This document shows positions 27,678 through 41,924 of a stretch of 64,000 bases of DNA, in pieces; position 1 is the first letter of the stretch; the number at the start of each line of letters is the position of its first letter. A model generated the notes under the pieces. It saw only the letters and a program-made list of their open reading frames with translations. It ran no database searches and was not told the origin of the DNA. Both the position numbers and the translations under genes were made by a program. Origin of the DNA: Candidatus Melainabacteria bacterium 17Bon1m (GTDB lineage Bacteria > Cyanobacteriota > Vampirovibrionia > Obscuribacterales > Obscuribacteraceae); the NCBI GenBank assembly GCA_032128875.1, contig JAVLKG010000002.1:864001-928000 (forward strand), given 5' to 3'.

Positions 27678-29493
27678 GAGGAAGTGTGAATTTGAATATG
27701 CTGCCTTCACCAATTTTGCTCTCCACCCAAATTTTGCCGCCATGTAGTTGAACAAAGGCTCTGCAAATTGCCAATCCCAAACCGGAGCCTTTCTCCTGGT
27801 TGTTTTCAGAACGACGTTCAACTTGTTGGAACTTTTCAAAAATATTCTCCAGCTTGTCTTCCGGAATGCCTTCGCCTTCGTCTCGGACGGCAATCACTGC
27901 AAAATTACCATCTCCAGTTTGACTGTCCTTATTTGCCGAAAGCGTTATTTTTCCGCCTTTAGGCGAGAATTTTACGGCATTGCCGACCAGATTATTGAGT
28001 ATACGATCTATTCGCTCCTCATCTCCCATCACAATCAGATCTGTTTCAACAAAATCCAGTTTTACGTCCTTTGATTCGGCAAAGACTGTAAGACTGGCGA
28101 CACAGGCATCAAAACACTCGTTAAGTGAAACTTTTGCCTTCTCAATATGCATCTGACCACTGTCAGCTTTTTCAACGTCCAGCAGATCATTCACGAGAGT
28201 AAGGAGACGATCTACATTTCGACCGCCCGCGTTTATGAAGTCATTGCCCTTTTCATCAAGCTTGCCGTGTTTTCCAGTTTCTAAGAACGTAAAAATGTGC
28301 CGAAGAGTCGATAGCGGCGTGCGCAAGTCATGAGTGACCATAGCCATAACTTCCTGCTTCAGAGTCTCTGCTTTTCGACGCTCTGTAATGTCGTGAATCA
28401 CACAGAAAGTTGCATCTTCTTCTTTTGAGAAGTGCGCTGAGAGCAGCACGTGGACAATGGTCCCGTCATCCCGTTTCATTCTTAGCTCAACCGGACTTGA
28501 ATCACCTTGTGTTTTCAAATTTGCAAATAGTTGAAGAACATTTTCGCGACTATCGGCAACGTAATCAGCAAAGTGTGTACCTAGTAAGTTTTCTGGCGCG
28601 CGATGTAAAACTGCTTGGCTGGCTGGATTCGCGGCAGAGAATTTTCCATTCGAATCAATTGAACAAATGAAATCTCTGGCATTGTCTATGATTGCTCTCT
28701 CTTTCTTCGCCGCTTCTTTTAGTGTCGTTGCCATACTGTGAAAAGTTTTGTCTACTGCTGCAATTTCGTCGTTGCCACCGATAGGAGTATGCAATGGTAC
28801 ATCAGCAGCCAGTCTGAAACTATTCTCGTTAAGGATGCTCAGTCGATTTGCGATCGTTCTCGTCAAGTAAATTGCCACTGCGATGGCAATAATGGTGTCA
28901 GCAACGGCGATCAGAATCATCAACTGTTTCGACAACTCTCTCAATCTCGCCTGCTCTACAGCATCGATTTCGGCAAGTTTCTTTTGTTGCGCTGCGTGCT
29001 CCAAAAGCCCGCCACCAAGAATTGATTTGACGTCTTTGCGTACGTCTTTCCAAAGTTTCTTACGTAGTTTTTGAATTTGCTCCGGACCATCTTCGGGTAT
29101 TTCCTCGAGACGTCTGATAAGCCCAAAAGTCTTATACGCTGCTTGCTCGGATGCAACAACACATTCGTAGAGCTTCGCATCATGCTGAACACTGTCTTTC
29201 AGTTGTTTGTAATGAACCTCATGCCGGCGATGCAGACTCTGCAGTTTTTCATCGCCAGTTGTTACATGGCGCAGCGGATTGTCGCGCCCAAATTCGCCGA
29301 TGTACTCATAAACATCCTGTGAAAGAACATTAATTGCGTCCGATATCTTTTTCGCGTTGATAGACTCGAGAAGGAGCACTTCGGCATCATTCTCCAGTTT
29401 CGCGACCCAGAACAAAGTGGCCAACTGCAGCACCAACGGCACAAGAACCAGGGCCAGTACCTTTGTCGATAGCGATAATCGTGGACGTCGCAT
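27670..29493 (-). CDS. Membrane sensor histidine kinase (periplasmic helical sensor-HAMP-PAS-HisKA-HATPase)
   Basis: Two TMs, GNDEI, HDITERR, THDLRTPL, NLVGNAVKF, DEGEGI, GSGLGL. Start moved to ATG 29493 to avoid overlapping the divergent regulator. Confidence 0.93.
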   Translation of the reverse strand: MRRPRLSLSTKVLALVLVPLVLQLATLFWVAKLENDAEVLLLESINAKKISDAINVLSQDVYEYIGEFGRDNPLRHVTTGDEKLQSLHRRHEVHYKQLKDSVQHDAKLYECVVASEQAAYKTFGLIRRLEEIPEDGPEQIQKLRKKLWKDVRKDVKSILGGGLLEHAAQQKKLAEIDAVEQARLRELSKQLMILIAVADTIIAIAVAIYLTRTIANRLSILNENSFRLAADVPLHTPIGGNDEIAAVDKTFHSMATTLKEAAKKERAIIDNARDFICSIDSNGKFSAANPASQAVLHRAPENLLGTHFADYVADSRENVLQLFANLKTQGDSSPVELRMKRDDGTIVHVLLSAHFSKEEDATFCVIHDITERRKAETLKQEVMAMVTHDLRTPLSTLRHIFTFLETGKHGKLDEKGNDFINAGGRNVDRLLTLVNDLLDVEKADSGQMHIEKAKVSLNECFDACVASLTVFAESKDVKLDFVETDLIVMGDEERIDRILNNLVGNAVKFSPKGGKITLSANKDSQTGDGNFAVIAVRDEGEGIPEDKLENIFEKFQQVERRSENNQEKGSGLGLAICRAFVQLHGGKIWVESKIGEGSIFKFTLPLA

Positions 29494-29514
29494 GCGAAGT
29501 AGCGGATCACAATG

Positions 29515-29543
29515 GGTATACTCAGTATTATTACCATTGTCAA
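29515..29543 (-). promoter_or_regulatory. Putative sigma70 promoter in the 63-bp divergent kinase/regulator gap
   Basis: Minus strand TTGACA-17 bp-TATACC; overlapped by inverted repeat ACAATGG (29509-15) / CCATTGT (29534-40). Confidence 0.4.
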
Positions 29544-29556
29544 TGTATGCGAAACG

Positions 29557-30249
29557 ATGGCAAAGATACTGCTTGTCGAAGACGATCAAGATCTCTCCAT
29601 GATGGTGAAAGCCGGACTGGAAGGGGAAAGGCACGTAGTTGAATGCGCTTTTGACGGCGATGAAGCTATGCATCTGTTGCAGAGCGAAGAATATGATCTT
29701 GTAGTCCTTGATTGGCAATTGCCAAAGCTTTCCGGGATCGATGTCCTGAAAAAACTTCGTCAGATGGGAAAATCTGTTTCAGTGATAATGCTCACCGGAA
29801 AGTCTGCAATCGACCACAAAGAAGAAGGCATTGATACCGGCGCTGATGATTATCTGACCAAGCCTTTTGATATGAGGGAACTCCATGCGCGCCTGCGAGC
29901 ACTACTGCGACGTCCAGGTGGCGCTACTGGAGTGACCGGAAACACTCTAGTCGCGGGTGATTTGGAGCTTGACCCAGTTAAGTATCGCCTCAAAAGAAGC
30001 GGGAAGGATGTGCACCTCACCCCTAAAGATTTTGCCCTGCTCGAGTTTTTCCTGCGCAACCCCGATCATGTTTTCAGTGTGCAGACAATTCTTTCTCGTG
30101 TTTGGAGCTATGAATCCGATGCTTCACCTGAAGGACTACGAGCGGCAATCCGTCGAATTCGCAAAGCTGTGGATATCACCGACGATCCGAATGAGTCGAT
30201 AATTGAAAACGTTGCAAGAGTCGGCTACAGACTGCGAAAACCAAATTAG
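29557..30249 (+). CDS. OmpR/PhoB family response regulator
   Basis: KILLVEDD, VLDWQLP, MLTG, GADDYLTKPF; winged helix LTPKDFALL...ENVARVGYRL. Confidence 0.95.
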   Translation: MAKILLVEDDQDLSMMVKAGLEGERHVVECAFDGDEAMHLLQSEEYDLVVLDWQLPKLSGIDVLKKLRQMGKSVSVIMLTGKSAIDHKEEGIDTGADDYLTKPFDMRELHARLRALLRRPGGATGVTGNTLVAGDLELDPVKYRLKRSGKDVHLTPKDFALLEFFLRNPDHVFSVQTILSRVWSYESDASPEGLRAAIRRIRKAVDITDDPNESIIENVARVGYRLRKPN

Positions 30250-31782
30250 TTATTTACTTGGGTTGTAGTCGTATGCAATTGACTGCTGCAAGCGGAGTTT
30301 TGATTCTTCAGTCTGACCGAGCGCACCAAGGGCCTTGCCGAGCCAATAATAGGCAGAACCTGTCGTCTCTTCCAGTGCGATTGATTTGCGAGCTGCTTCT
30401 ACGGCATCGGCATGTCGGCCCAGTCTTTCGTATATCTCGGCAAGACGGCTATAGTAAAAGGTATTTTTGTCGGGAATTGTTTTGCATTCGTTTAAGGCAG
30501 TTTGAAAATCACCTACAGCTAAGGACGCATCGATAAGGCCGTTCGTAACAGATGATTTGTTTTCTTTATTCTTGATTGCAGTAAAGCATCTTATGGCACT
30601 GGCGTAGTCTTTCATTCCCAGATAGCTGTACGCGCGCTCTTTCTGCAATGTCATATCACCAGGCTTCTTCTTCAGCTTTTGTTCTACTGCGGCAATTTCC
30701 TGCGCGTAAATGTCTTTTGCTTTAGCTGCTTGGCCTGCCTCTTCGTAAACGCTTGCGAGCCAATTATTGATCCAGGCTGATTTTCTCTTTTTGAGTTTTT
30801 CAATGACGAATTCAAAGTCATTCATCGCTTTTACTCTATCATTCAGATCCAGATAAATGCGTGCGCGCGATAATCGCCAGTCTTCTTCTTCCGGTTCTTG
30901 TGCAATCAGTTCATCCAGATAAGCGATGTGTTTCTTCTGCGCATCTGCCAAACCAGCACTATCACCTAGTGCCCTTGCAGTCGATGCTGAATAGTCGTAT
31001 GCACTTTCTTCTTTTGATGTGTCATTTAACCAGGCATTCGCTGCATCATTGGCTTCTCTAATTCTTCCTTTTGCAATCAAAAGATCAATCAAATCGGAAA
31101 ACGGTGACTCTTCTGCTGAGTCGTTCGCATTTGAAGAAAATGAACTACTCTCCTCTGGATATTTTGTGGATTCTTGAAACTCAAAGATTGCCTTGTCCAG
31201 CTCTTTCCTTTTCTTAAGCACCCGGCCAAGGGCATTGTGTACCCGACGTTTGTCGTAATCAAAGGTCAGCGATTTTTCATAGTCTTTTTGAGCTTCTGAA
31301 AGTTTGTCTTTCCAGTGGTATGCAATTCCCCGCTGGTAGTACAAACTTCCATCATTTTTCTCAAGTTCGATAGCTTTATCTAAATCGCGGATCGCATCAT
31401 CATATTCATTCTTGTGAGTGTGTAGCTGCCCGCGATAGCTGAGGCACAGATAGTCTTTTGGGTCCAACTCAATTGCTTTGTTGAAATCAGACATCGCCTC
31501 ATCTTTTCTGTCCAGCCACCAGCGAATGAGACCCCTCTCTCTGTACAAGTTTGCACGGTGAGGGTACTTCTTTATCTGTGCTGTAAAAAGTTTTTCTGAC
31601 GCCTTCCAGGCGTCTTCACTTGAAAATTTAGGATGTGCCCAACTAGGTATGAGCTTGTCCATGTCCTTCGGAGGACTTTTGGACAGCTGAAAGCAAATCG
31701 CCGTTATACCGCCGATCACGATAAATATGGCGCAGCCTAGCCAGACACCGAGCTTCTGGCCGAAGGTTAGCTTTGAAAACAT
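30250..31782 (-). CDS. Membrane-anchored tetratricopeptide repeat protein
   Basis: N-terminal TM; multiple TPRs (AMSDFNKAIELDPK, AIRDLDKAIELEKN, AYYWLGKAL). Confidence 0.88.
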   Translation of the reverse strand: MFSKLTFGQKLGVWLGCAIFIVIGGITAICFQLSKSPPKDMDKLIPSWAHPKFSSEDAWKASEKLFTAQIKKYPHRANLYRERGLIRWWLDRKDEAMSDFNKAIELDPKDYLCLSYRGQLHTHKNEYDDAIRDLDKAIELEKNDGSLYYQRGIAYHWKDKLSEAQKDYEKSLTFDYDKRRVHNALGRVLKKRKELDKAIFEFQESTKYPEESSSFSSNANDSAEESPFSDLIDLLIAKGRIREANDAANAWLNDTSKEESAYDYSASTARALGDSAGLADAQKKHIAYLDELIAQEPEEEDWRLSRARIYLDLNDRVKAMNDFEFVIEKLKKRKSAWINNWLASVYEEAGQAAKAKDIYAQEIAAVEQKLKKKPGDMTLQKERAYSYLGMKDYASAIRCFTAIKNKENKSSVTNGLIDASLAVGDFQTALNECKTIPDKNTFYYSRLAEIYERLGRHADAVEAARKSIALEETTGSAYYWLGKALGALGQTEESKLRLQQSIAYDYNPSK

Positions 31783-31794
31783 CAGCTATCCGAA

Positions 31795-31920
31795 TTAGAA
31801 TTCGGCGACAAGTCCGAAACAGGCGATCATGATGATGAAACCGAAGTAGAGCAGAAGGAACCACATCCAGCGAATGTTCAGCTCGATGTCGGACATTTTC
31901 TCTTTCTTTTCTACTGCCAT
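31795..31920 (-). CDS. 41-aa single-TM peptide, last small gene of the respiratory operon
   Basis: MAVEKKEKMSDIELNIRWMWFLLLYFGFIIMIACFGLVAEF; AGGA upstream; operon-like codon bias (TTC/ATC/TAC); fits between mvhD and the TPR gene. Confidence 0.65.
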   Translation of the reverse strand: MAVEKKEKMSDIELNIRWMWFLLLYFGFIIMIACFGLVAEF

Positions 31921-31964
31921 GACTTCAATCCTTTGATTCTTTGATTCTGAGACCTTGGGAGCTG

Positions 31965-32369
31965 TTATTTGGCTTCCGGTGCGGCGAGATTGTTCAATGT
32001 CGCGATGAATTCTTTCGACTCTGAGATAAAGCGCTGACGTTGCGGTTTTGCCAGCCAGAGAGCCAGAATGCGACGTCTGTCGGTGCCTTTCTTGAGGGTC
32101 GGAGGACGATCGCCGAGAAGGCGTTCGCGAATCATGCGGTTGCCTTCGCGATAGTAGCAATCGCCGATTTGGCAGCCAGTAACAACAACACCGTCGGCAC
32201 CAGCCTTGATGGCATTTTCAATCATCAGTGGTTGAATCATGCCTGAGCAAGGGAATTTGACTACTTTCATGCCGGGCACTTCAGTGCAGCTGCCTGAATC
32301 GTCAACGATGCCGCTTAAGTCGCAGGCGCGTTCGCAGATAAGTGTGATTACTTTCTTAGCATCAGACAT
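31965..32369 (-). CDS. mvhD: MvhD/FlpD family [2Fe-2S] protein (hydrogenase iron-sulfur subunit D)
   Basis: LICER, VVKFPCSGMI, GADGVVVTGCQIGDCYYREGN: four Cys in MvhD spacing. Confidence 0.88.
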   Translation of the reverse strand: MSDAKKVITLICERACDLSGIVDDSGSCTEVPGMKVVKFPCSGMIQPLMIENAIKAGADGVVVTGCQIGDCYYREGNRMIRERLLGDRPPTLKKGTDRRRILALWLAKPQRQRFISESKEFIATLNNLAAPEAK

Positions 32370-32374
32370 TGGTG

Positions 32375-33553
32375 TTACCCTTTCGCCTCCAGAAGAGCCT
32401 TAATCTTCGCGTTCACTTCCGCATCCGGAAGATCTGGCAAATCGATTGCATCAAACGCGCAAGCGCCGACGCATACGCCGCAGCCTGAGCAGCGGAAATC
32501 TTTTACTGTCGCCAACAATTTGAATCTGGAACCAGCTGGTGCAGGCACCATTTCAATCGCTTGGTACGGGCAGTCTTTGTAGCAGAGTGAGCAGCCTGTG
32601 CACTTGTTAAGCACAACTTCAGCTGTTTCGATCGCTGGTTGTTTCGGAATCATCAACCACGGTGCAGCCGTGATTGCGACGGTGCCGAGAATCATCACTG
32701 CCCAGTAACCCATGACCGGCATTTGGCTGAGCATGGCGTATGGGAACAAGAAGAACCAGTCGATGTCGAACGATGTCGGCTGTTGGTTGAGGTCAGCCAT
32801 GCTGCCACTGCTCAACGGCCAGATGAATACGCAGACGAGCACCAATGCGGTCAAAATGTAGTTCACTGCCGGTGGTGGCGTGAGTACTGGTCTGGTCATG
32901 CGCAGGTAGTGAACCCACAGACCGAAGAGCAGGAAGAATGAAAGACCGATGTGGATGAAAAGGAAGTTGGAGAGAGTCAGGTTTGTAATCTGATCTCCGT
33001 TCAAGAACCAGGTCTTGAGTCCAGGTCCAATTACCGGCAGTGCTTCGAAAGCGCTGGCAGTCATTCTTGTGAGCAAGAGCGAGCGGTCATCCCAAACCAG
33101 GTAGAAACCGGTTTGACCAATGAAGAGTACGAAGATTGCCAGAACAATACCGGAAACCCATTGGAGCCAGCGGTATTGACGGTAGCGATCTGTGAACCAT
33201 ACGCGCAGAGCGTGCAGCAAGATGGTGATAACCATCGCGTCGCCTGCATAACGGTGGATACCGCGGATGACACCACCAAAAGGAAGAGACTTGGTGATGT
33301 AATCAACTGAGGTCCAAGCGTTGGTCAGAAGCTTCGAGTTGTAAGCGTTGTCGATGGTCGGGATGTAGTATGCGAAAAGCAGCAGCCCGGAGAGGTACAG
33401 CACCCACAGGTAGTACTGGGGAAGAGCTCCGTGATAGTAGAACGGATTGTATTTACTGGTCATGAACGCGTTGATTGCGTTTTCAATGGCCAGCGTCAAA
33501 CCGTTGAAGGCTTTTAGCGGGTGATTATCGACAATCTTTTGCACTGGGGTCAT
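32375..33553 (-). CDS. Cytochrome b/b6-like protein #2 fused to a C-terminal 2x[4Fe-4S] ferredoxin
   Basis: H100/H114 and H201/H215 pairs; IDWFF at the PEWY position; CTGCSLCYKDCP and CSGCGVCVGACA. Confidence 0.9.
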   Translation of the reverse strand: MTPVQKIVDNHPLKAFNGLTLAIENAINAFMTSKYNPFYYHGALPQYYLWVLYLSGLLLFAYYIPTIDNAYNSKLLTNAWTSVDYITKSLPFGGVIRGIHRYAGDAMVITILLHALRVWFTDRYRQYRWLQWVSGIVLAIFVLFIGQTGFYLVWDDRSLLLTRMTASAFEALPVIGPGLKTWFLNGDQITNLTLSNFLFIHIGLSFFLLFGLWVHYLRMTRPVLTPPPAVNYILTALVLVCVFIWPLSSGSMADLNQQPTSFDIDWFFLFPYAMLSQMPVMGYWAVMILGTVAITAAPWLMIPKQPAIETAEVVLNKCTGCSLCYKDCPYQAIEMVPAPAGSRFKLLATVKDFRCSGCGVCVGACAFDAIDLPDLPDAEVNAKIKALLEAKG

Positions 33554-33589
33554 CCTCTTCTATGCGTCTTCGCTAAAACTTCTTGCTGC

Positions 33590-33973
33590 CTATTTCTTTA
33601 CCGGTAAAACTGTCTTCTCTTCAGCATCTTCTCTGCCGATAATCATGATGGCGATACCGCCAATTGTCAGAGCTACCCCCATAAAGAGAATGTAGCCATA
33701 GTCTCCGAGGCTGGCAGTCGACTTCGGATTTACCGAGACGCCTTTGCCTTGCAAATACTTCGTCAAATCTTCACCCAAACTAGGTGTGAGTGAATTGAAG
33801 AAACCAGCGATTGCGCCGTGCAGACCAATTCGTGAGGTCAGGTCGGTCAGCCAGTCAGGTGTAGTTCCGGTAAAACCTAACTCAGACCATGCCATAAGAA
33901 CACTGACGGCGACAACGGCGCCGGCGAATGCCAGGAGTATGATGCCCTTCGGTGAAAGTATGTACTTAATCAC
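33590..33973 (-). CDS. Small 2-TM membrane protein of the respiratory operon
   Basis: Two hydrophobic helices; AAGGA upstream of GTG; tight operon spacing. Confidence 0.75.
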   Translation of the reverse strand: MIKYILSPKGIILLAFAGAVVAVSVLMAWSELGFTGTTPDWLTDLTSRIGLHGAIAGFFNSLTPSLGEDLTKYLQGKGVSVNPKSTASLGDYGYILFMGVALTIGGIAIMIIGREDAEEKTVLPVKK

Positions 33974-33985
33974 TATGAATTCCTT

Positions 33986-34357
33986 TTACCTGGTTCCGTT
34001 TCGTTCTGCGAGTTTTGCTTCGATTTTGTCGAACAATTTGACCTTGCGTACCAACTTCCCTGTCGACTTTTCTTCGATGTAGATCCAGTAGCCTTGGACT
34101 GCTAGAAGCAGCATGGTTAGTGTGGTACCGAAGAAGAGATAGGCACAAGGAATGAGACCCGGCTCTTTTTGAACTTCACGCCAACCCTCGAAAAACCAGG
34201 AGAGCGTGATTACAGTCAGAGTGAAAGCGAACAGCCTTAAGGGCAGTTTGACTTTCGTGGGCTTGACCAGGGCTTTGGTTTCCACAGCCACGCTAGCATC
34301 ACCGGTGGTGACGTTAGTGTTGATTGCGCGTGGGTCCTTTTTCCCGGTCAAGATCAT
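33986..34357 (-). CDS. Small 2-TM membrane protein of the respiratory operon
   Basis: Two TMs; start moved to ATG 34357 (GGGGA upstream), 7 bp after the cytochrome b #1 stop. Confidence 0.75.
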   Translation of the reverse strand: MILTGKKDPRAINTNVTTGDASVAVETKALVKPTKVKLPLRLFAFTLTVITLSWFFEGWREVQKEPGLIPCAYLFFGTTLTMLLLAVQGYWIYIEEKSTGKLVRKVKLFDKIEAKLAERNGTR

Positions 34358-34364
34358 TCCCCGA

Positions 34365-36155
34365 TTAAGTTGATGCAGATGCCGGTTGAGCAGGTGCTGG
34401 TTTAGGAGCAGCCTGAGCACCAGACTTGAAGTTCCATACCATGTAGGCGCCTACGACTGCAAAGACAGCTCCTGCAATCATCCATGTCCAATCCCAGAAA
34501 GGAATATCTAGGGGATAGAAAACGCCTTTGGTGGTCGTTTCGATGTTCGACGCGCGATTCATTCTGTCGCAGAAAACGACATAGTCGTAAGCCCAGCGGT
34601 TGGTGACCAGATAGTCAACCATGCCCAAGTATTTGGGGTGATCCGGTGTAAATGTCGGGATCCAATTAACGACCCAGTCTACTGGTGACGTCATCTTGCA
34701 ATGTTCAAGAATCTGGTTGAATGCTGCATGAACTTCCGGACCGCCTTTGGCCACATAGTTGTCCTTGAGCCAATCTTGCCAGTCATTCTTATATGTAGAT
34801 GCGAAATACGTGGAGGTTGGTTGAACCTTTCGCATAGCTGCTTCGAGCTTGTCCGCTTCCGGAAGGAATGGACGCATCACACCGTAGAACCACTGTTGGA
34901 ACATGGGTCCGCGGAACATTTCCACTTTCGCCATGTAGTAATAGACGAATCCCCAGAATGCTTGCGAAGCACCGATGACTGCTATTACAAGCGCACCCTT
35001 CCATTGTTTTGCACGTTGGACTGCGTCTTTGTTTTGCCACATGAGCCAGAGCTGCAGACCCATACCTACGTTGACTGTGAGGTATGTGAAGGCTCTCCAA
35101 TACGGAGGATCGGTGTGGATGTTGGCGATGTTAGCGATGATGAGCAGTGAGAATACGATCCAGCTCACGAGAGCCATGATCACTACCCAGAATATGAATG
35201 GTCTCTTGTTGATGTCTTTCTCTGCGCCGGTCAGCCAGACATCCATGAATGGCAAGCCGACAACGATTAGAGGCAACACAATAGTGATTTCTGTTGCTAC
35301 GACAGGCTCCAGGTATTTGTACATTTGGTACAAGCCAAGGAAGTACCAGTCAGACAAAATCGGAAGCGGTGTGACGTCCGGATCTGACCGTTTACCTTGC
35401 GCAGCAGGAAGAACTATAGCTACAACAACCAACATCAGGGTGATGATGGTGCGCTTTGCCCAGCTAAGTGGAACGCGCTTATAAGCGTTTTTGTAGAAGT
35501 AGAGTTCTACAAAGATCAAAGGAATGAGAGAGAAAGCGAGGTGGATAGAGAAGAATCGTGTGATTGTCTCCTGCGTGATAGCCGCTCCGCCGCCCAGGAG
35601 AACTTCGGCTGTATTCCATCCCATGTGAATCGACTTTACGAGCGGCTGATAGAAGTCGCCCATGACCGGGAATTGGTCCATGTAAGTCGGGAATGTCGCG
35701 AATACCTTTGTCGCCCAAAACGCGCGCTGGTTCCAGATCAATAGATATCCAGTCAGACCGGAATACATTGATAGCAGAAGCGCTACAAGAGCGATTGCAA
35801 TGTTGAACTCTTTACCCGGTTTGTAATCGGCACAGATGAACATGCGATACATGCGCATCGTCGCCGCAATGATCATGGCGTCGGCACCGTACTTGTGCAT
35901 GCCCCGCATGAGACCGCCGAAAGGAATACCGTTCTGAATGTGGAGAATAGAATCAAATGCCTGCGCTTTCGTAGGTACGTACCACATGATGAGTACGCAG
36001 CCTGTGAACATAACGAGGAACCAGACCATGTAGAAGATTGGCCCTAGAGAATACCAAGGGTTTGTCTTCGCTTCCTCGCGGTGATGCTCATCGAATATAT
36101 CGATGTTGTTGATCCGCGTCTTTACCCAGTCTATGGTTGCATTTACCGCTGACAT
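34365..36155 (-). CDS. Cytochrome b #1 (fused PetB/PetD-like) with extra C-terminal TMs and a soluble insert; lacks bH ligands
   Basis: RGMHKYGA, TGYLLIWNQRAFWA, TITRFFSIH, TPLPILSDWYF; H87 and H205 present, R101 and Y219 at the second ligand positions. Confidence 0.9.
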   Translation of the reverse strand: MSAVNATIDWVKTRINNIDIFDEHHREEAKTNPWYSLGPIFYMVWFLVMFTGCVLIMWYVPTKAQAFDSILHIQNGIPFGGLMRGMHKYGADAMIIAATMRMYRMFICADYKPGKEFNIAIALVALLLSMYSGLTGYLLIWNQRAFWATKVFATFPTYMDQFPVMGDFYQPLVKSIHMGWNTAEVLLGGGAAITQETITRFFSIHLAFSLIPLIFVELYFYKNAYKRVPLSWAKRTIITLMLVVVAIVLPAAQGKRSDPDVTPLPILSDWYFLGLYQMYKYLEPVVATEITIVLPLIVVGLPFMDVWLTGAEKDINKRPFIFWVVIMALVSWIVFSLLIIANIANIHTDPPYWRAFTYLTVNVGMGLQLWLMWQNKDAVQRAKQWKGALVIAVIGASQAFWGFVYYYMAKVEMFRGPMFQQWFYGVMRPFLPEADKLEAAMRKVQPTSTYFASTYKNDWQDWLKDNYVAKGGPEVHAAFNQILEHCKMTSPVDWVVNWIPTFTPDHPKYLGMVDYLVTNRWAYDYVVFCDRMNRASNIETTTKGVFYPLDIPFWDWTWMIAGAVFAVVGAYMVWNFKSGAQAAPKPAPAQPASAST

Positions 36156-36172
36156 GTTATCGATTGACTCCC

Positions 36173-36736
36173 TCAGGCGATTGAACCGGCTTCCAAACCA
36201 ACGATCTTATACGCATTGCCCTCTTTCTTGAGGTCAAACTTACGCGGCGGGCGCGGCGCAGGCCCAGAAACTACTTTGCCGTTTTGGGCAATGTCGTAAA
36301 CGCTCAAGTGGCAAGGGCATGCAAAAACGGGACCTTGTGGTTTGAAGTTGTAACCCTTGGCACATTCCGAAGGGTCTTTGACAAAGTTGAACACACAACC
36401 AAGGTGCGGGCAAATGCGGCTGTAGGCGACCACATCACCGGACGGCAATTTGACAATGAATCCGGGGATTTCGCGGACTTCTTTACCTTCAGGGTTGTAC
36501 TCGACATATTTCTGCTTGAACATGAAGTCAATGCATGTCCACTCTGACGGGAAGTCCGAATCGCTGAAGGAAACGTCTTCTTCAGGTCCGGGTTGATCGG
36601 AAGGTCCAAAAACGTCCAGAGGCTTCAGCGTTGGACGCATGTACCTCAGCAACGGCGATATGACCAGACCAAACGTGGCGGCGAGCGGAATAGCTGCCAG
36701 AGTCTTCAGAATAATTCTTCTATTTGTGCCTTCCAT
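36173..36736 (-). CDS. Rieske [2Fe-2S] subunit of a bc-type complex
   Basis: Tat-like NRRIILK + TM; CPHLGC and CPCHLSVY; GPAPRP; start ATG 36736 after GGAG. Confidence 0.93.
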   Translation of the reverse strand: MEGTNRRIILKTLAAIPLAATFGLVISPLLRYMRPTLKPLDVFGPSDQPGPEEDVSFSDSDFPSEWTCIDFMFKQKYVEYNPEGKEVREIPGFIVKLPSGDVVAYSRICPHLGCVFNFVKDPSECAKGYNFKPQGPVFACPCHLSVYDIAQNGKVVSGPAPRPPRKFDLKKEGNAYKIVGLEAGSIA

Positions 36737-36749
36737 TTTTCGAACTCCG

Positions 36750-37688
36750 TTACTTTGTCTCGCCCTGAGGCTTAGCTTCTTCGGGTTTAGCATCAGCGGG
36801 TTTGTCTTCCGCCGGCTTAGCATCTTTGGTCTTGGCGCCTTCTTTGGTGTTATCGATTGGAGCGCCTACCGTTGGCGAGCCTATATTTGCCTCGGCGATT
36901 TGTTTGTTGGTTGAGTGGAATGCACGCACGTAGGCTACGAGCTTCCAAATATAAGCCTCATCGAATTTAACTTCTTTGGCTTTGTCCTCCTTGCCGAGGA
37001 AATTGGGCATCCCTTCCCACTTTATGCCATTTGCGATGTGATCCCATAGGATATCGTCGGTTCTGTCGTAAAAACGCTTATAGTTTTGGAAGTTGGCTGG
37101 GTTGGGCTCGAGTACGTTGTACTTGTTGAGCGGACCGTCGCCATAACCCTTAGGACCGTGACAGACTGCGCAATTCGCGCCGTATACAGGGGTGACTTTG
37201 GAGTATTCCTTCGCATCCAAAAGCGGTGCTGAGAGAGAGCGAACGTAATAAACAAGGTTCCAAGTCTTCTGGCTGGAGATGTCAGCCAAGGTCGTTGGGT
37301 GCTTGACGCCGTCTTTGCCGAATGCGAGGAACATATATTGATCGATCGGCTTTTGTTTGTGACCGTACTCAGGCGAGGTGAGGTCGATTGCCGATTTGCC
37401 GCTGACGCCTTTTCCGCCCGTGCCGTGGCACTCAGCGCAAGAAAGCTTTTCATAGACTACTTTGCCGTCCGGCTCGGATGGTTTGTCATCCGGGTAAATG
37501 GCCTCTCTTCCACCCTTGGTTACGTCTTTGGAAACCAGTTGTGAATCGTCACCTTTGACGGTGACTTGATTGCCGCATCCTGTAACTAGTGTCACCGCAG
37601 GTAACACCACTAGCAAAAGTGCCAGCAAGGATGTCGACAACCCGGCGAATGTTTCAAACGTAAAAACTGGTTTTTTGGAACGTGTCAT
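36750..37688 (-). CDS. Dihaem cytochrome c lipoprotein
   Basis: Lipobox LVTG-C; CAECH and CAVCH; GMP in domain 2. Confidence 0.9.
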   Translation of the reverse strand: MTRSKKPVFTFETFAGLSTSLLALLLVVLPAVTLVTGCGNQVTVKGDDSQLVSKDVTKGGREAIYPDDKPSEPDGKVVYEKLSCAECHGTGGKGVSGKSAIDLTSPEYGHKQKPIDQYMFLAFGKDGVKHPTTLADISSQKTWNLVYYVRSLSAPLLDAKEYSKVTPVYGANCAVCHGPKGYGDGPLNKYNVLEPNPANFQNYKRFYDRTDDILWDHIANGIKWEGMPNFLGKEDKAKEVKFDEAYIWKLVAYVRAFHSTNKQIAEANIGSPTVGAPIDNTKEGAKTKDAKPAEDKPADAKPEEAKPQGETK

Positions 37689-37695
37689 AACTCAC

Positions 37696-37941
37696 TCAGT
37701 AACCGAAGAAAGGAATCCAGGAGAACATTGCCCAAAGAACAATGAAGAAGAAGCACACAATGAGAAACAGGGGAGGCGGACCTTCACCAATACGGTATTC
37801 AGAAACTACTTCATAATGTTCATCTGCCGAGGGCGCGGCTGCGGCAGCTTTAGCAACTGCTGCGGGTTTGGCGGCAGGTTTTTCTTCAGCAGATTTCTCC
37901 GCCTTAACCTCGTCCCCGTTGTTTTTCACTTCTTCAGCCAT
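37696..37941 (-). CDS. Small single-TM protein resembling the CcoP N-terminal helix
   Basis: HYEVVSEY...PPPLFLIVCFFFIVLWAM; GAGG RBS. Confidence 0.7.
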   Translation of the reverse strand: MAEEVKNNGDEVKAEKSAEEKPAAKPAAVAKAAAAAPSADEHYEVVSEYRIGEGPPPLFLIVCFFFIVLWAMFSWIPFFGY

Positions 37942-37967
37942 TTCCTACCTCTTTGTGCGCAAATTTT

Positions 37968-38216
37968 TTACTTGTTGGCCGTCGATGCACTGAGCCTGAT
38001 CCTTTCAACTGCTGCCAGCGCTTTTTGGCCAGTAGTGTTGTCGTCGCCGTCGTCAAGCATGTCGAACTTTACGTCCTCCATGTTTTCAAACTCACCGTTT
38101 TTGAAGGCCCACAAAATTGCTGCAATAGCCATTACAAAAAACAGGATGCAAATGAAGAAGGCGACGTATATTCCCGAGCTCAGACCTTGCTGGTTGAGAA
38201 TGCAATTAGGACACAT
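37968..38216 (-). CDS. ccoS: cbb3-type oxidase assembly protein CcoS
   Basis: TM followed by LWAFKNGEFENME (CcoS W-A-x-x-x-G-Q/E-F-D/E pattern); GGAGG RBS. Confidence 0.8.
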   Translation of the reverse strand: MCPNCILNQQGLSSGIYVAFFICILFFVMAIAAILWAFKNGEFENMEDVKFDMLDDGDDNTTGQKALAAVERIRLSASTANK

Positions 38217-39295
38217 TAGTGGCCTCCTTCTTTTGTGGACGTGCCGCTGGTTGTGGTACCAGTACTGGTGCCTTCAGGAGATGAAGGTGTTGAAGGTTGC
38301 GGCATTTTGTGTTCGGATGGGCTCATGTTGTCACCTTCCGCCTGATGTCCGTGTCCGCCGTGGTGAGGTTCGTACTGCTGGTTAGACAACTTAGGCAGAT
38401 GGATATCTTCAACTTTGTTGATCTGACCGATACTGTTGATAGTTACCTCTTGGTCTTGAGGGATCGTCTTCAAGTATGCAACCAGGTACCAGCGTTGCTC
38501 TTCGGTAAGCGTTTCGGCCCAACGCGGCATCCGCGTTCCTACAATACCTTCTGAGATTCTGTAGAACCAGAATTCGTCGGAGTATTGCTTGTAGTATGGG
38601 CGGCTGAAATTTGGCGGTTTCTTTTCTAGAGAAAGTGAATTCGGACCTTCTCCGTAGCCGTTCAAACCGTGGCAAACAGCACAGTTCTGCGTATAAATAC
38701 CTCTGCCAGCATTAGCGTTGGCACTGGCATTGGTGTCAACTGTTTTACGGTTGTGCAATGCCACACCGGCTGGTGTAGTAGTTCTGTATTCGTCAGGAGC
38801 TTCGACGAATTCTTTCACCTGGCGACCGTTGCCCAAGCACTGTACATACGCGACCAGGTCGTTCATGTCCCGCTCGGACAGGTAGCTGAAGCTAGGCATG
38901 ATCGAGCCGGGTTTGACAGCGCGTGGTTGGATCAAGTGAGCTTTCTGCCACTCTGAAGCCATGCGTCCGCCTTCATTGGTCAAGTCCGGACCGGTACGGG
39001 CAGTGCCCAATTGGTGCGGTGTTTCCCAGATGAAGTCGCCCGCTTTGACGAGTGGACCATAACCTCTGTCTTGCAGACGGGTGAATTGAGTATGGCAATA
39101 GAAGCAGCCTTCCCTTACATATATTTTCCTTCCGCGAGCTGCATCTGCGACATTGGAAGCGACTTTGGTGTAGTCGTTGCTTCTGTGCTCTTTATCCGTT
39201 GGATTGAACAGCACCATCGGCAGAAGAACCGTGGAGAAAATGATGATGAAGAAAGTGGTGACGATACCGATTGCACCTAAACGATAGCTGTGCAT
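38216..39295 (-). CDS. ccoO: cbb3-type oxidase subunit II fused to a second cytochrome c domain
   Basis: GRKIYVREGCFYCHTQ, GTARTGPDL, HLIQPR, GSIMPSF; second CAVCH...GTRMP; His-rich tail. Confidence 0.92.
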   Translation of the reverse strand: MHSYRLGAIGIVTTFFIIIFSTVLLPMVLFNPTDKEHRSNDYTKVASNVADAARGRKIYVREGCFYCHTQFTRLQDRGYGPLVKAGDFIWETPHQLGTARTGPDLTNEGGRMASEWQKAHLIQPRAVKPGSIMPSFSYLSERDMNDLVAYVQCLGNGRQVKEFVEAPDEYRTTTPAGVALHNRKTVDTNASANANAGRGIYTQNCAVCHGLNGYGEGPNSLSLEKKPPNFSRPYYKQYSDEFWFYRISEGIVGTRMPRWAETLTEEQRWYLVAYLKTIPQDQEVTINSIGQINKVEDIHLPKLSNQQYEPHHGGHGHQAEGDNMSPSEHKMPQPSTPSSPEGTSTGTTTSGTSTKEGGH

Positions 39296-40701
39296 TACGC
39301 TTTCACCTCCGCTGCCTTAGCTGCAGGTGCAACTGATGCGGCAGGTTTTGTGTAAAGCGTCTTCCAGACGTTGTACGCAAACAGAAGTTGTCCCAAGACA
39401 ATCATGATTCCACTAATGCCTCTAAAGAACCAATAAGGTCTGATCTGCAATCCCCACTGATCGACAGGCATACCCATAGCCCAGCCAGCTGATTGAATCA
39501 AACCGGCAATGGTGAGCGATGTCATCATCAGGAGGAAGCCCAGGAATTTCAGCCAGTAGTGAGCGCGGATCAAACCTTGGCTGTAAAACTCTCTTCCGGT
39601 CAATTTCGGCAACGAATAATAAATTGCCGAAGTGAGGATAAAGGAGAAGGTTCCCAGAAGAGCAAGGTGGGCATGGCCTACAACCCATTGGGTGAAGTGT
39701 AAGTACCAGTTGACCCAGCGTGTCGCCTGGAACGGACCCTGTATGCAGGTGACCAGATAGAACATGCAGGATGTCACTGCAAAACGCAGTGGCAAATCGG
39801 TGACTGCCTGCCCCCAGCGACCCTTCATTGTCATGAAGAAGTTCGTCAATACGGTGAGTACAGGAACTAAAAGGAATATCGATGAAATGATTGCAATCGC
39901 TTTGAGCCATTCCGGTACAGGCGATTGGGTGATGTGGTGAGTACCGGTCGGAGCATAGAACAGAGCGATTCCCCAGAAACCCAACATTGACAAGCCATGG
40001 CTGTAGAGTGGCGCTTGGGTCAATCTGGGAAGCAGGTAATACATCATGCCTACGCCGACTGTGGTGAACCACATGCCCAGAATGTTGTGTCCGTAGAACC
40101 AACCGACGATCGCGTCGTTGAGCCCGGGCAAGGCAACGAAAGTTCTCTGTCCGATGATCCACACTAGCGGGAACCAGAACAGAGAACCGAGGAAATACCA
40201 GAGAGTCACATACAGTTTTTTGACTCTTCTGTTGAGGATGGTCATGTAGATGTTCAGCGCTACAGACACCAGAGCGACTGCTACGAGTACGTCGAGGATC
40301 GCTCCGAGTTCCGCATATTCCCGACCTTCGGTGTTGCCATTGAGCAGAGTGCAGAAGGCGGCGACAATCACCAGGTTCCAGGCCCACATGGTCATGTTCC
40401 CGAGCCTCTCTGACCAAAGCTTGGTCTTACAGAGATTTGGAACCATGTAGAAGATGGAGCCTACATATCCCATCGATAGCCAACCTACCGCTACAGCGTT
40501 GACGTGGAACATTCGCATATGCGGAAATGCCAACTGCGGCACGTTTTTAACCAGGTCGGGCATGGAAAACTCCAACCCGCCGATCATTCCTGCCCCCATG
40601 CCCCACAGTGACCACCACAGAGCGGATAGGAAGAAATTACGACTGGCGCTGCCCTCTTTATTGCTGAAAAGCTTGTCTGCAACAGAACTCAACTTGGACA
40701 C
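39295..40701 (-). CDS. ccoN: cbb3-type (C-family) haem-copper oxidase subunit I
   Basis: RMFHVNAV, EGREYAE, WFYGHNILG, LYS, FY...GTHH, WVVGHAHLALLG. Confidence 0.95.
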   Translation of the reverse strand: MSKLSSVADKLFSNKEGSASRNFFLSALWWSLWGMGAGMIGGLEFSMPDLVKNVPQLAFPHMRMFHVNAVAVGWLSMGYVGSIFYMVPNLCKTKLWSERLGNMTMWAWNLVIVAAFCTLLNGNTEGREYAELGAILDVLVAVALVSVALNIYMTILNRRVKKLYVTLWYFLGSLFWFPLVWIIGQRTFVALPGLNDAIVGWFYGHNILGMWFTTVGVGMMYYLLPRLTQAPLYSHGLSMLGFWGIALFYAPTGTHHITQSPVPEWLKAIAIISSIFLLVPVLTVLTNFFMTMKGRWGQAVTDLPLRFAVTSCMFYLVTCIQGPFQATRWVNWYLHFTQWVVGHAHLALLGTFSFILTSAIYYSLPKLTGREFYSQGLIRAHYWLKFLGFLLMMTSLTIAGLIQSAGWAMGMPVDQWGLQIRPYWFFRGISGIMIVLGQLLFAYNVWKTLYTKPAASVAPAAKAAEVKA

Positions 40702-41171
40702 CCCATATAGGCGCTAGGCCGATAGCGAAAATCCCATCAGAGCGCCCCAAGGGCTGCCGATTTGGCAAAAGCAGGTTTTTTGGGAAACCACTCTTAAAAG
40801 AGATCTTCATGACGCAGCGCCAATTTTAGATTAATGACATCCGCCTGAAAGGTCCGTTGTTTGATGATTTTTCACACACTTTTTCTTTAACCTACGAAAT
40901 AACGTCGTTAAAAACGAACCGAAAAAGATCTTTCATTCGATACAAACCGTAATGTGTTTGCCAAGTTGCCGTGAAGCTTTCAGTCACTTACAACCGCGAT
41001 GCAACTTAGGACATCTTTGACACCTACATTCGATATCGAATGAGAAAGACCCCACTACCTTATGTAGAGGCTGATTTTCGACGTAATTTTTTCGCTCTTG
41101 TAAAGCTTCGAATTTTGTCGATGTCAGTGTCCAATTACCGCAGCAAGATGTCTTGCTGCGCCATCTTTTTA

Positions 41172-41924
41172 TTAGGCGCCGCCTGATTGTTTTTCCGTCT
41201 TGAAGTTTTCTTCCTTGATTCTTTCTTTTTCCAGCCGCTCGGCTTCGAGCTTTTCTTTGCGCGCTTGAGCCGCCTGCTCTTTTTTGCGTTTCTTTTCCTC
41301 TGCTTCGGCAATAGCTTCCGGGCGCAGATCAATAGAGTTGTACTGGTTCATCGCTTTTAGCGTGCCTTCGTTTATCCAGGTAAACAAGCACTTCTTCGCA
41401 AGGTCTTGAGTTTGAGCAAGCAAATCTTGCTGCGCCTCTGGAATCCGGGAAAGTACAAACGAAGCGCGTTTGTCGCCGCCAGGATCGGGACCTACACCGA
41501 ATTTCAAACGAACTATCGATGTGTCTCCTCCCAGGCATTGAATTATGGATTCGACTCCATGCTGCCCCCCGGCACCCCCTCCGTTCTGCACCCGGAGTTT
41601 GCCAAGCGGCAAGGCGACGTCGTCATGGACGACTATGAAAGAGGAAACCGGCAGTTTGAACCATTGCTTAACCGCTACCAGACATTCTCCAGACAGGTTC
41701 ATATATGTCATGGGTTTGACCAGCATTATCGTTTTGCCGCGGTAGGAAAACTTCGAAAAGTCGCATTTCAGGCGGCTGTTGCTGGCGGGCTCCGCACCAT
41801 TTGCAGTACCAATGGCATCTACAACCATGAATCCCATGTTATGACGGGTACGCGCGTATTCTGCACCTGGGTTGCCGAGCCCCACAATCACTCTGGTTTC
41901 GTTGTCGTTATTTTGGTCAGCCAT
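41172..41924 (-). CDS. pth: Peptidyl-tRNA hydrolase with charged C-terminal tail
   Basis: IVGLGNPG.EY..TRHNMGF, KPMTYMNLSG, VVHDD, RLKFGVG; start ATG 41924. Confidence 0.93.
   Translation of the reverse strand: MADQNNDNETRVIVGLGNPGAEYARTRHNMGFMVVDAIGTANGAEPASNSRLKCDFSKFSYRGKTIMLVKPMTYMNLSGECLVAVKQWFKLPVSSFIVVHDDVALPLGKLRVQNGGGAGGQHGVESIIQCLGGDTSIVRLKFGVGPDPGGDKRASFVLSRIPEAQQDLLAQTQDLAKKCLFTWINEGTLKAMNQYNSIDLRPEAIAEAEEKKRKKEQAAQARKEKLEAERLEKERIKEENFKTEKQSGGA

Follow-up and report, generated by a model that had tools for sequence, protein, structure and literature searches.

Two unequal cytochromes b in one operon of Candidatus Melainabacteria bacterium 17Bon1m point to a naturally asymmetric respiratory complex III

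An operon of Candidatus Melainabacteria bacterium 17Bon1m (Obscuribacteraceae, Vampirovibrionia, Cyanobacteriota) raises the question of why a single gene cluster encodes two different cytochromes b, only one of which retains the ligands of the inner haem. The operon lies on the minus strand of a stretch of 64,000 nucleotides (assembly GCA_032128875.1, contig JAVLKG010000002.1, positions 864,001 to 928,000 of the forward strand), which is called the window here and whose own numbering is used for its features. Besides the two cytochromes b, named b#1 and b#2, it encodes a Rieske protein, c-type cytochromes and a cbb3-type oxidase. Every characterised complex III or cytochrome b6f is, to our knowledge, a symmetric dimer, and the operon points to an undescribed respiratory complex III that is asymmetric by nature. 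The observation is real and conserved; the interpretation is reasonable and unproven.

Cytochrome b#1 (34365..36155, minus strand) has 596 amino acids, is encoded by the open reading frame (ORF) directly after the Rieske gene and matches PF00033 with 78.8 bits (cut-off 27.2). Its nearest solved chains, like those of b#2, are cytochrome b6 and cytochrome b (phmmer, E about 1e-22), and its AlphaFold2 (AF2) model, with a mean pLDDT (predicted local distance difference test) of 82.6, has bc1 cytochromes b as its best Foldseek matches. Of the two His pairs that mark cytochrome b of bc1 and b6f complexes, b#1 has only the pair for the outer haem, bL. H87 (35895-35897) and H205 (35541-35543) align to the first His of helices B and D, and R101 (35853-35855) and Y219 (35499-35501) occupy the places of the second His, which bind the inner haem, bH, in the solved structures; the phmmer alignments thereby agree with what the initial annotation had read from the letters. 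For R101, the counterpart in cytochrome b6 is the second helix-B His. The second helix-D His pairs with Y219 in two of three printed alignments and with Y221 in the third, a discrepancy that comes from the placement of a one-residue gap by HMMER; residues 219-221 are Y-F-Y, and His is absent in either register. Cytochrome b6 has one residue more between its helix-D histidines than bc1 cytochrome b. The motif of the quinol oxidation (Qo) site, TPLPILSDWYF (residues 262-272, 35340-35372, from the translated ORF), contains SDWY and is unchanged in 21/21 sequences. This motif and the position of b#1 after the Rieske gene, which is recognised by PF00355 and by its cluster boxes, had also been reported by the initial annotation and were borne out by translation and Pfam. 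The sequences and alignments of b#1 and b#2 show no CxGG-motif Cys for haem ci.

The replacements are a family trait, and none of the aligned orthologues has a His at either place. In the 120 best homologues, which are 58-96% identical, H87, R101, H205 and Y219 are all unchanged (121/121 sequences, query included). A wider alignment, of 63 sequences, has Arg in 56 and Lys in seven at position 101, Tyr219 in 63/63 and an invariant E217, and H87 and H205 are the sole invariant His of b#1. The loci fetched from the class of the window, counted together with the window, have Arg in 15 and Lys in six at position 101, and Y219 in 21/21. Because the ligand pattern is unchanged in 121/121 homologues and kept in the 63-sequence alignment, it is, by the measure of conservation, neither chance nor a sequencing error. 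The surroundings of the site have also changed. A helix-C Gly, in column 122 of the alignment, packs on haem bH in bc1 and b6f structures and is present in 78/78 four-His representatives; the b#1 family (n=63) has Gly in 27, Ala in 24, Cys in six, Ser in five and Thr in one, and the 27 Arg/Lys rows of the representative list have Ala in 19, Ser in four, Gly in two, Cys in one and Thr in one. The glycines next to haem bL, G52 and G136, are invariant in b#1. Arg cannot act as a haem axial ligand. Haem bH is therefore very probably absent from b#1, since there is no His near the ligand positions, Arg is no ligand, the helix-C Gly is variable and the helix-D residue is unconserved across the clade described next.

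Substitution of Arg for the second helix-B His also occurs in more distant cytochromes b beyond the orthologues. A HMMER pass over 1.84 billion representative proteins returned 33 proteins at E up to 1e-30; in distant Arg-type proteins the helix-D position is Tyr, His, Arg, Phe, Trp or Ile, and the Glu two residues earlier is kept. In a scan of species genomes, Arg-type genes were found in three Melainabacteria records, an unclassified bacterium, a Holophagaceae metagenome-assembled genome (MAG) and a Caldisericia MAG. The gene of the Holophagaceae MAG is preceded by CcoN, CcoO(P), cytochrome c and Rieske genes, and this MAG and the unclassified bacterium also have a ferredoxin-fused b#2 gene followed by MvhD. 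A quick, unrooted maximum-likelihood tree was built from 87 sequences and 374 columns, which include the two columns of the trait itself, with four-His rows drawn from the top-150 list only. On this tree the 28 Arg-type rows and the 12 ferredoxin-fused rows each form one side of a branch (Shimodaira-Hasegawa-like approximate likelihood ratio test, SH-aLRT, 99 for both), and the two groups share the same split, which separates the Caldisericia type from the rest. As judged from the tree, the His-to-Arg cytochromes b are one clade, and the loss of the bH ligands is, on the sequences compared, ancient.

Two variants of the trait were seen beside this pattern. A sub-clade of five Arg-type representatives (P0133, P0137, P0138, P0140 and P0143) retains the helix-D His, within E-[LV]-H-F, and has one bH ligand replaced; the incomplete b#1 of the Holophagaceae MAG shares 55% identity with P0137 across residues 10-167. 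A Rieske-adjacent cytochrome b of a Candidatus Binatia MAG (L103, 5794-6840, minus strand) has Phe at the second helix-B His and keeps the helix-D His and the helix-C Gly; this Phe-type protein, which sits on a long branch among ordinary cytochromes b on the tree, seems to have arisen independently.

The cytoplasmic N-terminal segment of b#1 carries an acidic D-x-F-D-E stretch (D19, D22 and E23; 36087-36101), which is invariant in 63/63 relatives, is retained even in the distant Arg-type cytochromes b and is a possible docking surface for the iron-sulfur module. Past its eight-helix core, b#1 has a C-terminal extension (residues about 385-596, 34368-35003), which the AF2 model builds as two extra membrane helices, a helical domain (residues about 415-545) and a last membrane helix; in this model the helical domain would sit on the outer side. 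The extension lacks a haem c motif and is matched by no Pfam family; it is shorter or missing in the other families of the class, whose b#1 proteins have 441-532 amino acids.

Cytochrome b#2 (32375..33553, minus strand) has 392 amino acids and joins a cytochrome b (PF00033, 82.1 bits, cut-off 27.2) to a 2x[4Fe-4S] ferredoxin domain that matches Pfam Fer4 families. It has both His pairs, H100/H114 and H201/H215, each spaced by 14 residues, and the four His are intact in 20/20 class loci and 56/56 wider sequences. The ferredoxin domain (residues about 305-392, 32378-32641) has eight Cys in two CxxCxxCxxxC(P) motifs, which are kept in the same 20/20 loci and 56/56 sequences. The four His, the IDWFF motif and the 2x[4Fe-4S] tail, all named by the initial annotation, were recovered in the translation and the Fer4 matches. 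The ef-loop is variable in the family, with DWFF, DWFY or DLLY, and only the Asp of the Qo-like motif is invariant (D265, 56/56). After H215, where a quinone reduction (Qi) site would be, R218 is invariant and R221 nearly so. The N-terminus of cytochrome b is on the cytoplasmic (N) side in all known members. In b#2, the AF2 model places six membrane helices ahead of the ferredoxin domain, whose pLDDT is low (40-62), and the clusters are predicted to be cytoplasmic because six helices put this domain on the side of the N-terminus.

The next gene (31965..32369, minus strand) encodes an MvhD/FlpD-like iron-sulfur protein of 134 amino acids, which matches PF02662 with 71.4 bits (cut-off 22.3) and has Cys C12, C41, C66 and C71 invariant in 21/21 sequences. 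The cluster of MvhD/FlpD is a [2Fe-2S] cluster, as known from Mvh-Hdr structures. This gene is the single copy in the genome, mvhD directly follows b#2 in every fetched locus that holds b#2, and the b#2 homologues longer than 686 amino acids are single-chain fusions of cytochrome b, Fer4 and FlpD in 19 of 19 cases. Gene order and fusions of this kind suggest that ferredoxin-fused b#2 and MvhD are very probably one physical unit. None of these 19 longer homologues is a fusion of b#1 to b#2, an absence that is weak evidence.

A fifth His of b#2, H41 (33431-33433), is invariant in 56/56 sequences. It lies at the N-side start of helix A, one residue past the position of the haem-ci Cys of cytochrome b6, and is replaced by Leu, Phe, Thr or Ala in two groups, the b#2 of the Caldisericia type and the fused cytochrome b-Fe-S-MvhD proteins. 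H41 may bind an additional haem, placed between bH and the first cluster, or form part of the wall of a quinone site.

The two cytochromes b occur together. In 151 genomes of the class of the window, the search with b#1 (P0001) has a gap in best E between 1.6e-53 and 7.3e-24 with 89 genomes on the strong side, and the search with b#2 (P0002) matches 89 genomes at E up to 1e-30; of the 90 genomes with at least one of the two genes, 88 have the pair. The two others are a b#1-only genome (G129, 76% complete) and a b#2-only genome (G066, 86% complete), and in each the match is at a contig start. Among 20 class loci fetched, from eight family codes, 19 have the order CcoN, CcoO(P), cytochrome c, Rieske, b#1, ferredoxin-fused b#2 and MvhD. 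Outside the class, the b#2 type accompanies the b#1 type in L029, L110, L112, L113 and L115 and in genomes G151 and G152. Wherever sequence sufficed, in the class and outside it, a b#1-type gene was never found without the b#2 type. Because the losses are complementary, the genes are paired and the order is conserved, the comparison favours the view that the two cytochromes b divide one job.

The Caldisericia-type clusters have the same pair in another arrangement. L029 and the metagenome contigs L110, L112, L113 and L115 encode Rieske, ferredoxin-fused b#2, MvhD, Fer4, Fer4_22, a flavoprotein and an Arg-type cytochrome b; on two shorter contigs the flavoprotein gene is directly upstream of the Arg-type cytochrome b. 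The b#2 of this type has 331-335 amino acids and four His, and the flavoprotein has NAD_binding_1 and DHODB_Fe-S_bind domains. The three-protein module together with MvhD presumably resembles FlxABCD and the beta and gamma subunits of sulfhydrogenase. In at least one lineage, then, the b#2-MvhD unit appears from its gene neighbourhood to lead to an NAD(P)-binding flavoprotein.

A homodimer of b#1 would load bL at the Qo site and offer no onward path. Since b#1 lacks this path, and b#2 has the only one together with a Qo loop of low conservation, a b#1:b#2 dimer that works over a bL-to-bL bridge would be the simplest working machine. The proposed assembly would consist of a cbb3 oxidase and a Rieske/cytochrome b complex whose cytochrome b core is made of two different paralogues, where b#1 would give the Qo site and a bL, with its inner-haem site closed by R/K101 and Tyr219, and b#2 would give a second bL, the only bH and two [4Fe-4S] clusters continued by MvhD, for a predicted total of three b haems. 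Quinol, probably menaquinol, would be oxidised at b#1. The first electron would pass through Rieske and the c cytochromes to the cbb3 oxidase and O2, and the second from bL of b#1 to bL of b#2, then to bH of b#2, the Fe-S clusters and MvhD, leaving on the cytoplasmic side in place of quinone reduction at a Qi site of b#1. The outcome would be a quinol-based electron bifurcation that yields a low-potential cytoplasmic electron, which in the Caldisericia-type relatives would go on to the NAD(P)-binding flavoprotein module.

The bridge has an experimental counterpart. According to the accessible portions of two papers (PMC4152375 and PMC4330944; the other sources cited below are likewise taken from their accessible portions), growth is still supported by engineered bc1 dimers in which one monomer has an inactive Qo site and its partner an inactive bH side, and by this analogy a bL-to-bL bridge could carry the full catalytic flux, as it can in the engineered Rhodobacter enzymes. 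For the low-potential product, the energetic case draws on the Ser and Tyr of the Rieske protein and on the probable use of menaquinol, both described below; by the same argument, the bL potential of anammox complexes has been held to be very low, enough to reach the level of NAD(P)H (PMC12954380), which is an inference of those authors and not a measurement.

Several points weigh against this mechanism, whose heterodimer and bL-to-bL step are predictions from the genes. The bH side of b#1 keeps an invariant G38 and an invariant R104, whose equivalent binds a haem propionate in canonical enzymes, and the invariance of E217, Y219 and the basic residue 101 suggests a site under selection that might hold something; the site may instead hold the bundle together without haem, or help to dock the cytoplasmic module. 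The initial annotation, which described the Qo motif of b#2 as more eroded, proposed that quinol is oxidised in b#1 only; given the invariant D265, b#2 may have a quinone site of its own. In one class genome (G086) the operon stops after b#1, and b#2 and MvhD lie together on another contig. In other bacteria b#2-like proteins appear to work without b#1 or Rieske, so that b#2 would in principle need no partner (PMC4122944). An electron that travels inward across the membrane would do so against the membrane potential, and typical ferredoxin-type clusters lie far below typical bH potentials. The operon encodes no cytoplasmic acceptor, and a Pfam scan of the window proteins found no NAD(P)/FAD-binding Fe-S subunit in it. 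A Flx-like partner of MvhD was sought in the genome and rejected: the only Fer4_22/NAD-binding pair belongs to a NiFe hydrogenase cluster, and no partner can be named.

The same heterodimer could run with its iron-sulfur arm as an entry, where electrons from NAD(P)H (via a flavoprotein), ferredoxin or a hydrogenase would reach bH of b#2 through MvhD and the clusters and then join the electron from b#1 in reducing quinone at a Qi-like site of b#2, or leave to the oxidase branch. The flow from low-potential Fe-S to haem would be downhill, the conserved Arg after H215 of b#2 (R218 and R221) stand at the would-be Qi site, cytochrome b6f has been discussed as accepting ferredoxin electrons at the N side (PMC5600118), and the stand-alone cytochrome b-Fe-S-MvhD fusions have no Rieske, so that no bifurcation is possible in them (PMC4122944). 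Set against this are the lack of an encoded electron donor in the operon, the putative nature of the Qi site and the argument of the anammox paper that refilling the quinol pool from NAD(P)H would be wasteful (PMC12954380), and we regard entry as unlikely. To a similar degree improbable is an arrangement of two homodimers that are co-expressed only, in which b#1 and Rieske would make a one-haem quinol:cytochrome c oxidoreductase that sends both electrons into the high-potential chain without a Q cycle, with bL of b#1 as a transient store, and b#2, its ferredoxin domain and MvhD would make a NarI-like wire between a quinone site and the cytoplasmic Fe-S clusters. Stand-alone b#2-like fusions exist, b#2-MvhD is unlinked from b#1 in G086, D265 of b#2 is invariant, and the invariant H41 would lie, if the positions are equivalent, near the spot of an extra haem that an AlphaFold3 model of anammox complexes sets between identical monomers (PMC12954380). 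The b#1 types are nevertheless never seen without a b#2 type, both families share the same deep split of the tree, and the invariant bL ligands with G52 and G136 in b#1 fit a through-route better than a dead end. In the normal bc1 complex, moreover, the transfer of both electrons to the high-potential chain is no more than a slow bypass, which also counts against two homodimers.

A near-normal Q cycle by a b#1 homodimer would require that b#1 keeps its inner haem by unusual ligands, namely Tyr219, with Lys or Arg at 101 close by. The invariance of Y219, the retention of G38 and R104, the Lys at 101 in 7/63 sequences and the five-representative sub-clade with a helix-D His would suit it, and bc1 haem-ligand mutants still assemble haems, with altered potentials (PMC4807273). 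On the other side are the Arg in 56/63 sequences, which is no haem ligand, the helix-C Gly that is no longer conserved, and the change of the helix-D residue among Tyr, His, Arg, Phe, Trp and Ile across the Arg-type clade, which is unlike a ligand; the strict pairing with b#2 would also be left without a reason. We consider this account highly improbable. With these accounts weighed, a b#1:b#2 heterodimer of some kind seems rather likely, and the whole path, with quinol oxidation at b#1 and exit through the Fe-S clusters, is put forward tentatively as the leading account and a serious possibility. More doubtful is the broadest statement, in which a natural obligate heterodimer with a compulsory bL-to-bL step would drive an O2-pulled bifurcation to ferredoxin- or NAD(P)H-level reductant without a Q cycle, in an ancient multi-phylum family whose original NAD(P)-linked form would be seen in the Caldisericia clusters.

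The other genes of the operon, all on the minus strand, supply the high-potential branch. The first, which opens the conserved gene order in 19/20 related loci, encodes a CcoN-like catalytic subunit of a C-family (cbb3-type) haem-copper oxidase (39295..40701, 468 amino acids; PF00115 COX1, 270 bits). It is followed by a CcoO fused to two cytochrome c domains (38216..39295, 359 amino acids; PF02433 FixO, 107 bits), a CcoO/P-like protein with two stretches matched by PF00034 and PF13442; the presence of CcoN with CcoO (FixO), by the profile scores for PF00115 and PF02433, places the oxidase in the C family. A dihaem cytochrome c (36750..37688, 312 amino acids), with two stretches matching PF13442 and PF00034, is kept at the same position in 20/20 loci and is the likely carrier between Rieske and oxidase. 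The Rieske [2Fe-2S] protein (36173..36823, listed ORF of 216 amino acids; PF00355, 39 bits) has the cluster boxes CPHLGC and CPCHLSVYD, and the boxes CPHLGC and CPCHLS are present in the window and in 20/20 related loci. Its true start may be M30, at 36736, just upstream of a twin-arginine stretch, NRRIILK. The box CPCHLSVYD carries Ser and Tyr as hydrogen-bond donors, which raise the potential of the cluster (PMC12954380).

Between b#1 and b#2 are two small membrane-protein ORFs on the minus strand, both without a Pfam match, which are possible extra subunits. The first (33986..34420) has a listed GTG start that overlaps b#1, and its real start is probably internal; weak BLAST relatives are at the same place in 4/20 class loci and in two close relatives. 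The second (33590..33973, 127 amino acids) has relatives at the same place in L016, L018, L025 and L026. BLAST matches of the two (33590-34420) are limited to closer relatives, and other families have a gap of 450-800 bases at this place. At the other end, an ORF of 121 amino acids (31795-32160) is not counted as a part, as it overlaps mvhD and is matched by no Pfam family at E of 0.001 or below, and a tetratricopeptide repeat (TPR) gene (30250-31782) was excluded, as it adjoins the operon in close relatives only. Beyond the TPR gene, in the span 27670-30249, two possible regulators of the operon are encoded: on the minus strand a histidine kinase with a PAS domain, and on the plus strand (29512-30249) a response regulator of the OmpR type. 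Three runs labelled as RNA-Seq (X2-X4) gave contigs of 19-59 kb that are identical to the window and cover genes of both strands (29500-41500); they behave like DNA from the source sample and give no sign of transcription. A lake-water metatranscriptome from another study (X19) covered the operon and its flank with no more than seven pieces, 151-294 bases long. Five of these are at least 99% identical, and the seven are too few for a claim of operon expression or co-transcription.

The genome (7.55 Mb, 35 contigs, 93% complete) has an ordinary Rieske/cytochrome b cluster elsewhere (L024, 7932-10906; G000:C1, about 309.9-312.9 kb), with a Rieske protein of 167 amino acids, a four-His-type cytochrome b of 360 amino acids that matches PF00033 with 172 bits, and a membrane protein with a cytochrome c domain alongside. 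The unusual complex thus supplements a standard one. Menaquinone is the probable quinone, as indicated by two genes of the MqnA/MqnD family, which belong to the futalosine route to menaquinone, by the absence of any MenD above cut-off in the genome and by the Asp-type Qo motif, which has been linked to menaquinol (Kao and Hunte, PMC4122944). The NiFe hydrogenase cluster (L108, 5929-12065; G000:C1, about 438.9-445.1 kb) encodes maturation genes, Fer4_22, NAD-binding/2Fe-2S, and small and large subunits in a sulfhydrogenase-like layout, with three universal stress protein genes ahead.

The role of electron transfer between the halves of the dimer has been debated for years with engineered mutants. 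If the proposal is true, evolution uses the inter-monomer bridge as a main road, and the complex would be a clean system for measuring the bL-to-bL step. The Fe-S outlet would then be a second, independent case for the reduction of low-potential carriers driven by Rieske/cytochrome b, so far proposed for anammox only. Arguments on the origin of aerobic respiration, in which these genes are annotated as ordinary b6f subunits, would also have to take a different view of how the non-photosynthetic sister lineages of cyanobacteria respire.

In the literature searched, which leaves most subscription papers outside, Soo et al. 2017 included, no description was found of a Rieske-linked, bH-less cytochrome b paired with a ferredoxin-fused one, and the accessible portions of PMC11214002 (eNOR) and PMC4040986 (Soo et al. 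2014) yielded nothing on these cytochromes b. The initial annotation had referred to a reported fused complex III-IV operon with two cytochrome b genes in Melainabacteria. The complex III/IV fusion is in print (PMC6349859), for Obscuribacter phosphatis and others, as the same operon type with petB/petC-like genes beside a C-family oxidase; in its accessible text the genes are annotated as b6f subunits, and two cytochrome b genes, ligand loss or an Fe-S arm are not mentioned.

Among characterised systems, the cytochrome b of bc1 and b6f complexes (PDB 6rqf, 2zt9, 2fyn and 8smr) has the same fold and family, PF00033, and the likeness extends to the Rieske partner, the Qo motif of b#1, the four His of b#2, and the c cytochromes and oxidase downstream. 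The known complexes are homodimers of one cytochrome b with two b haems each, whereas here b#1 is without bH ligands and b#2 has cytoplasmic Fe-S clusters. The b#2-MvhD unit is itself a member of an uncharacterised family already in print, the PDWF-FeS clade (Kao and Hunte 2014, PMC4122944), in which cytochrome b, 4Fe-4S and MvhD are combined with an xDWF-type motif and of which b#2 and MvhD are a split form. The clusters of that clade have no Rieske and, in the accessible text, no bH-less partner is described; here Rieske is present in the operon and in 20/20 loci, and b#1 always accompanies b#2.

The cyanobacterial subfamily K (Dibrova et al. 2017, PMC5600118) is a precedent for ligand loss, with the helix-2 haem His changed to Glu or Gln and the haem-bn Gly lost. 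Its members are short four-helix proteins of photosynthetic cyanobacteria with unknown function, and the accessible account does not describe them as Rieske-linked or as paired with a ferredoxin-fused cytochrome b. The anammox complexes Kuste4569-4574 and Kustd1480-1485 (PMC12954380) combine Rieske/cytochrome b with an N-side Fe-S/flavin NAD(P) oxidoreductase, for which an NAD(P)H-making quinol bifurcation was proposed; a comparable module is encoded with the b#1 and b#2 relatives of the Caldisericia type and is missing from the window operon. The anammox complexes are modelled as homodimers with full haem sets, haem cN included, and have a separate large NAD(P) subunit; no MvhD or ferredoxin fusion is described in the accessible text, and their function is still a proposal. 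The nearest functional likeness is to the cross-inactivated cytochrome b-b fusions engineered in Rhodobacter (PMC4152375 and PMC4330944), in which quinol oxidation and the N-side path are in different monomers and are joined by the bL-to-bL step. Those constructs are laboratory variants of a normal enzyme that still use Qi, whereas the complex proposed here would have an Fe-S outlet and an asymmetry that is natural, of ancient origin and obligatory.

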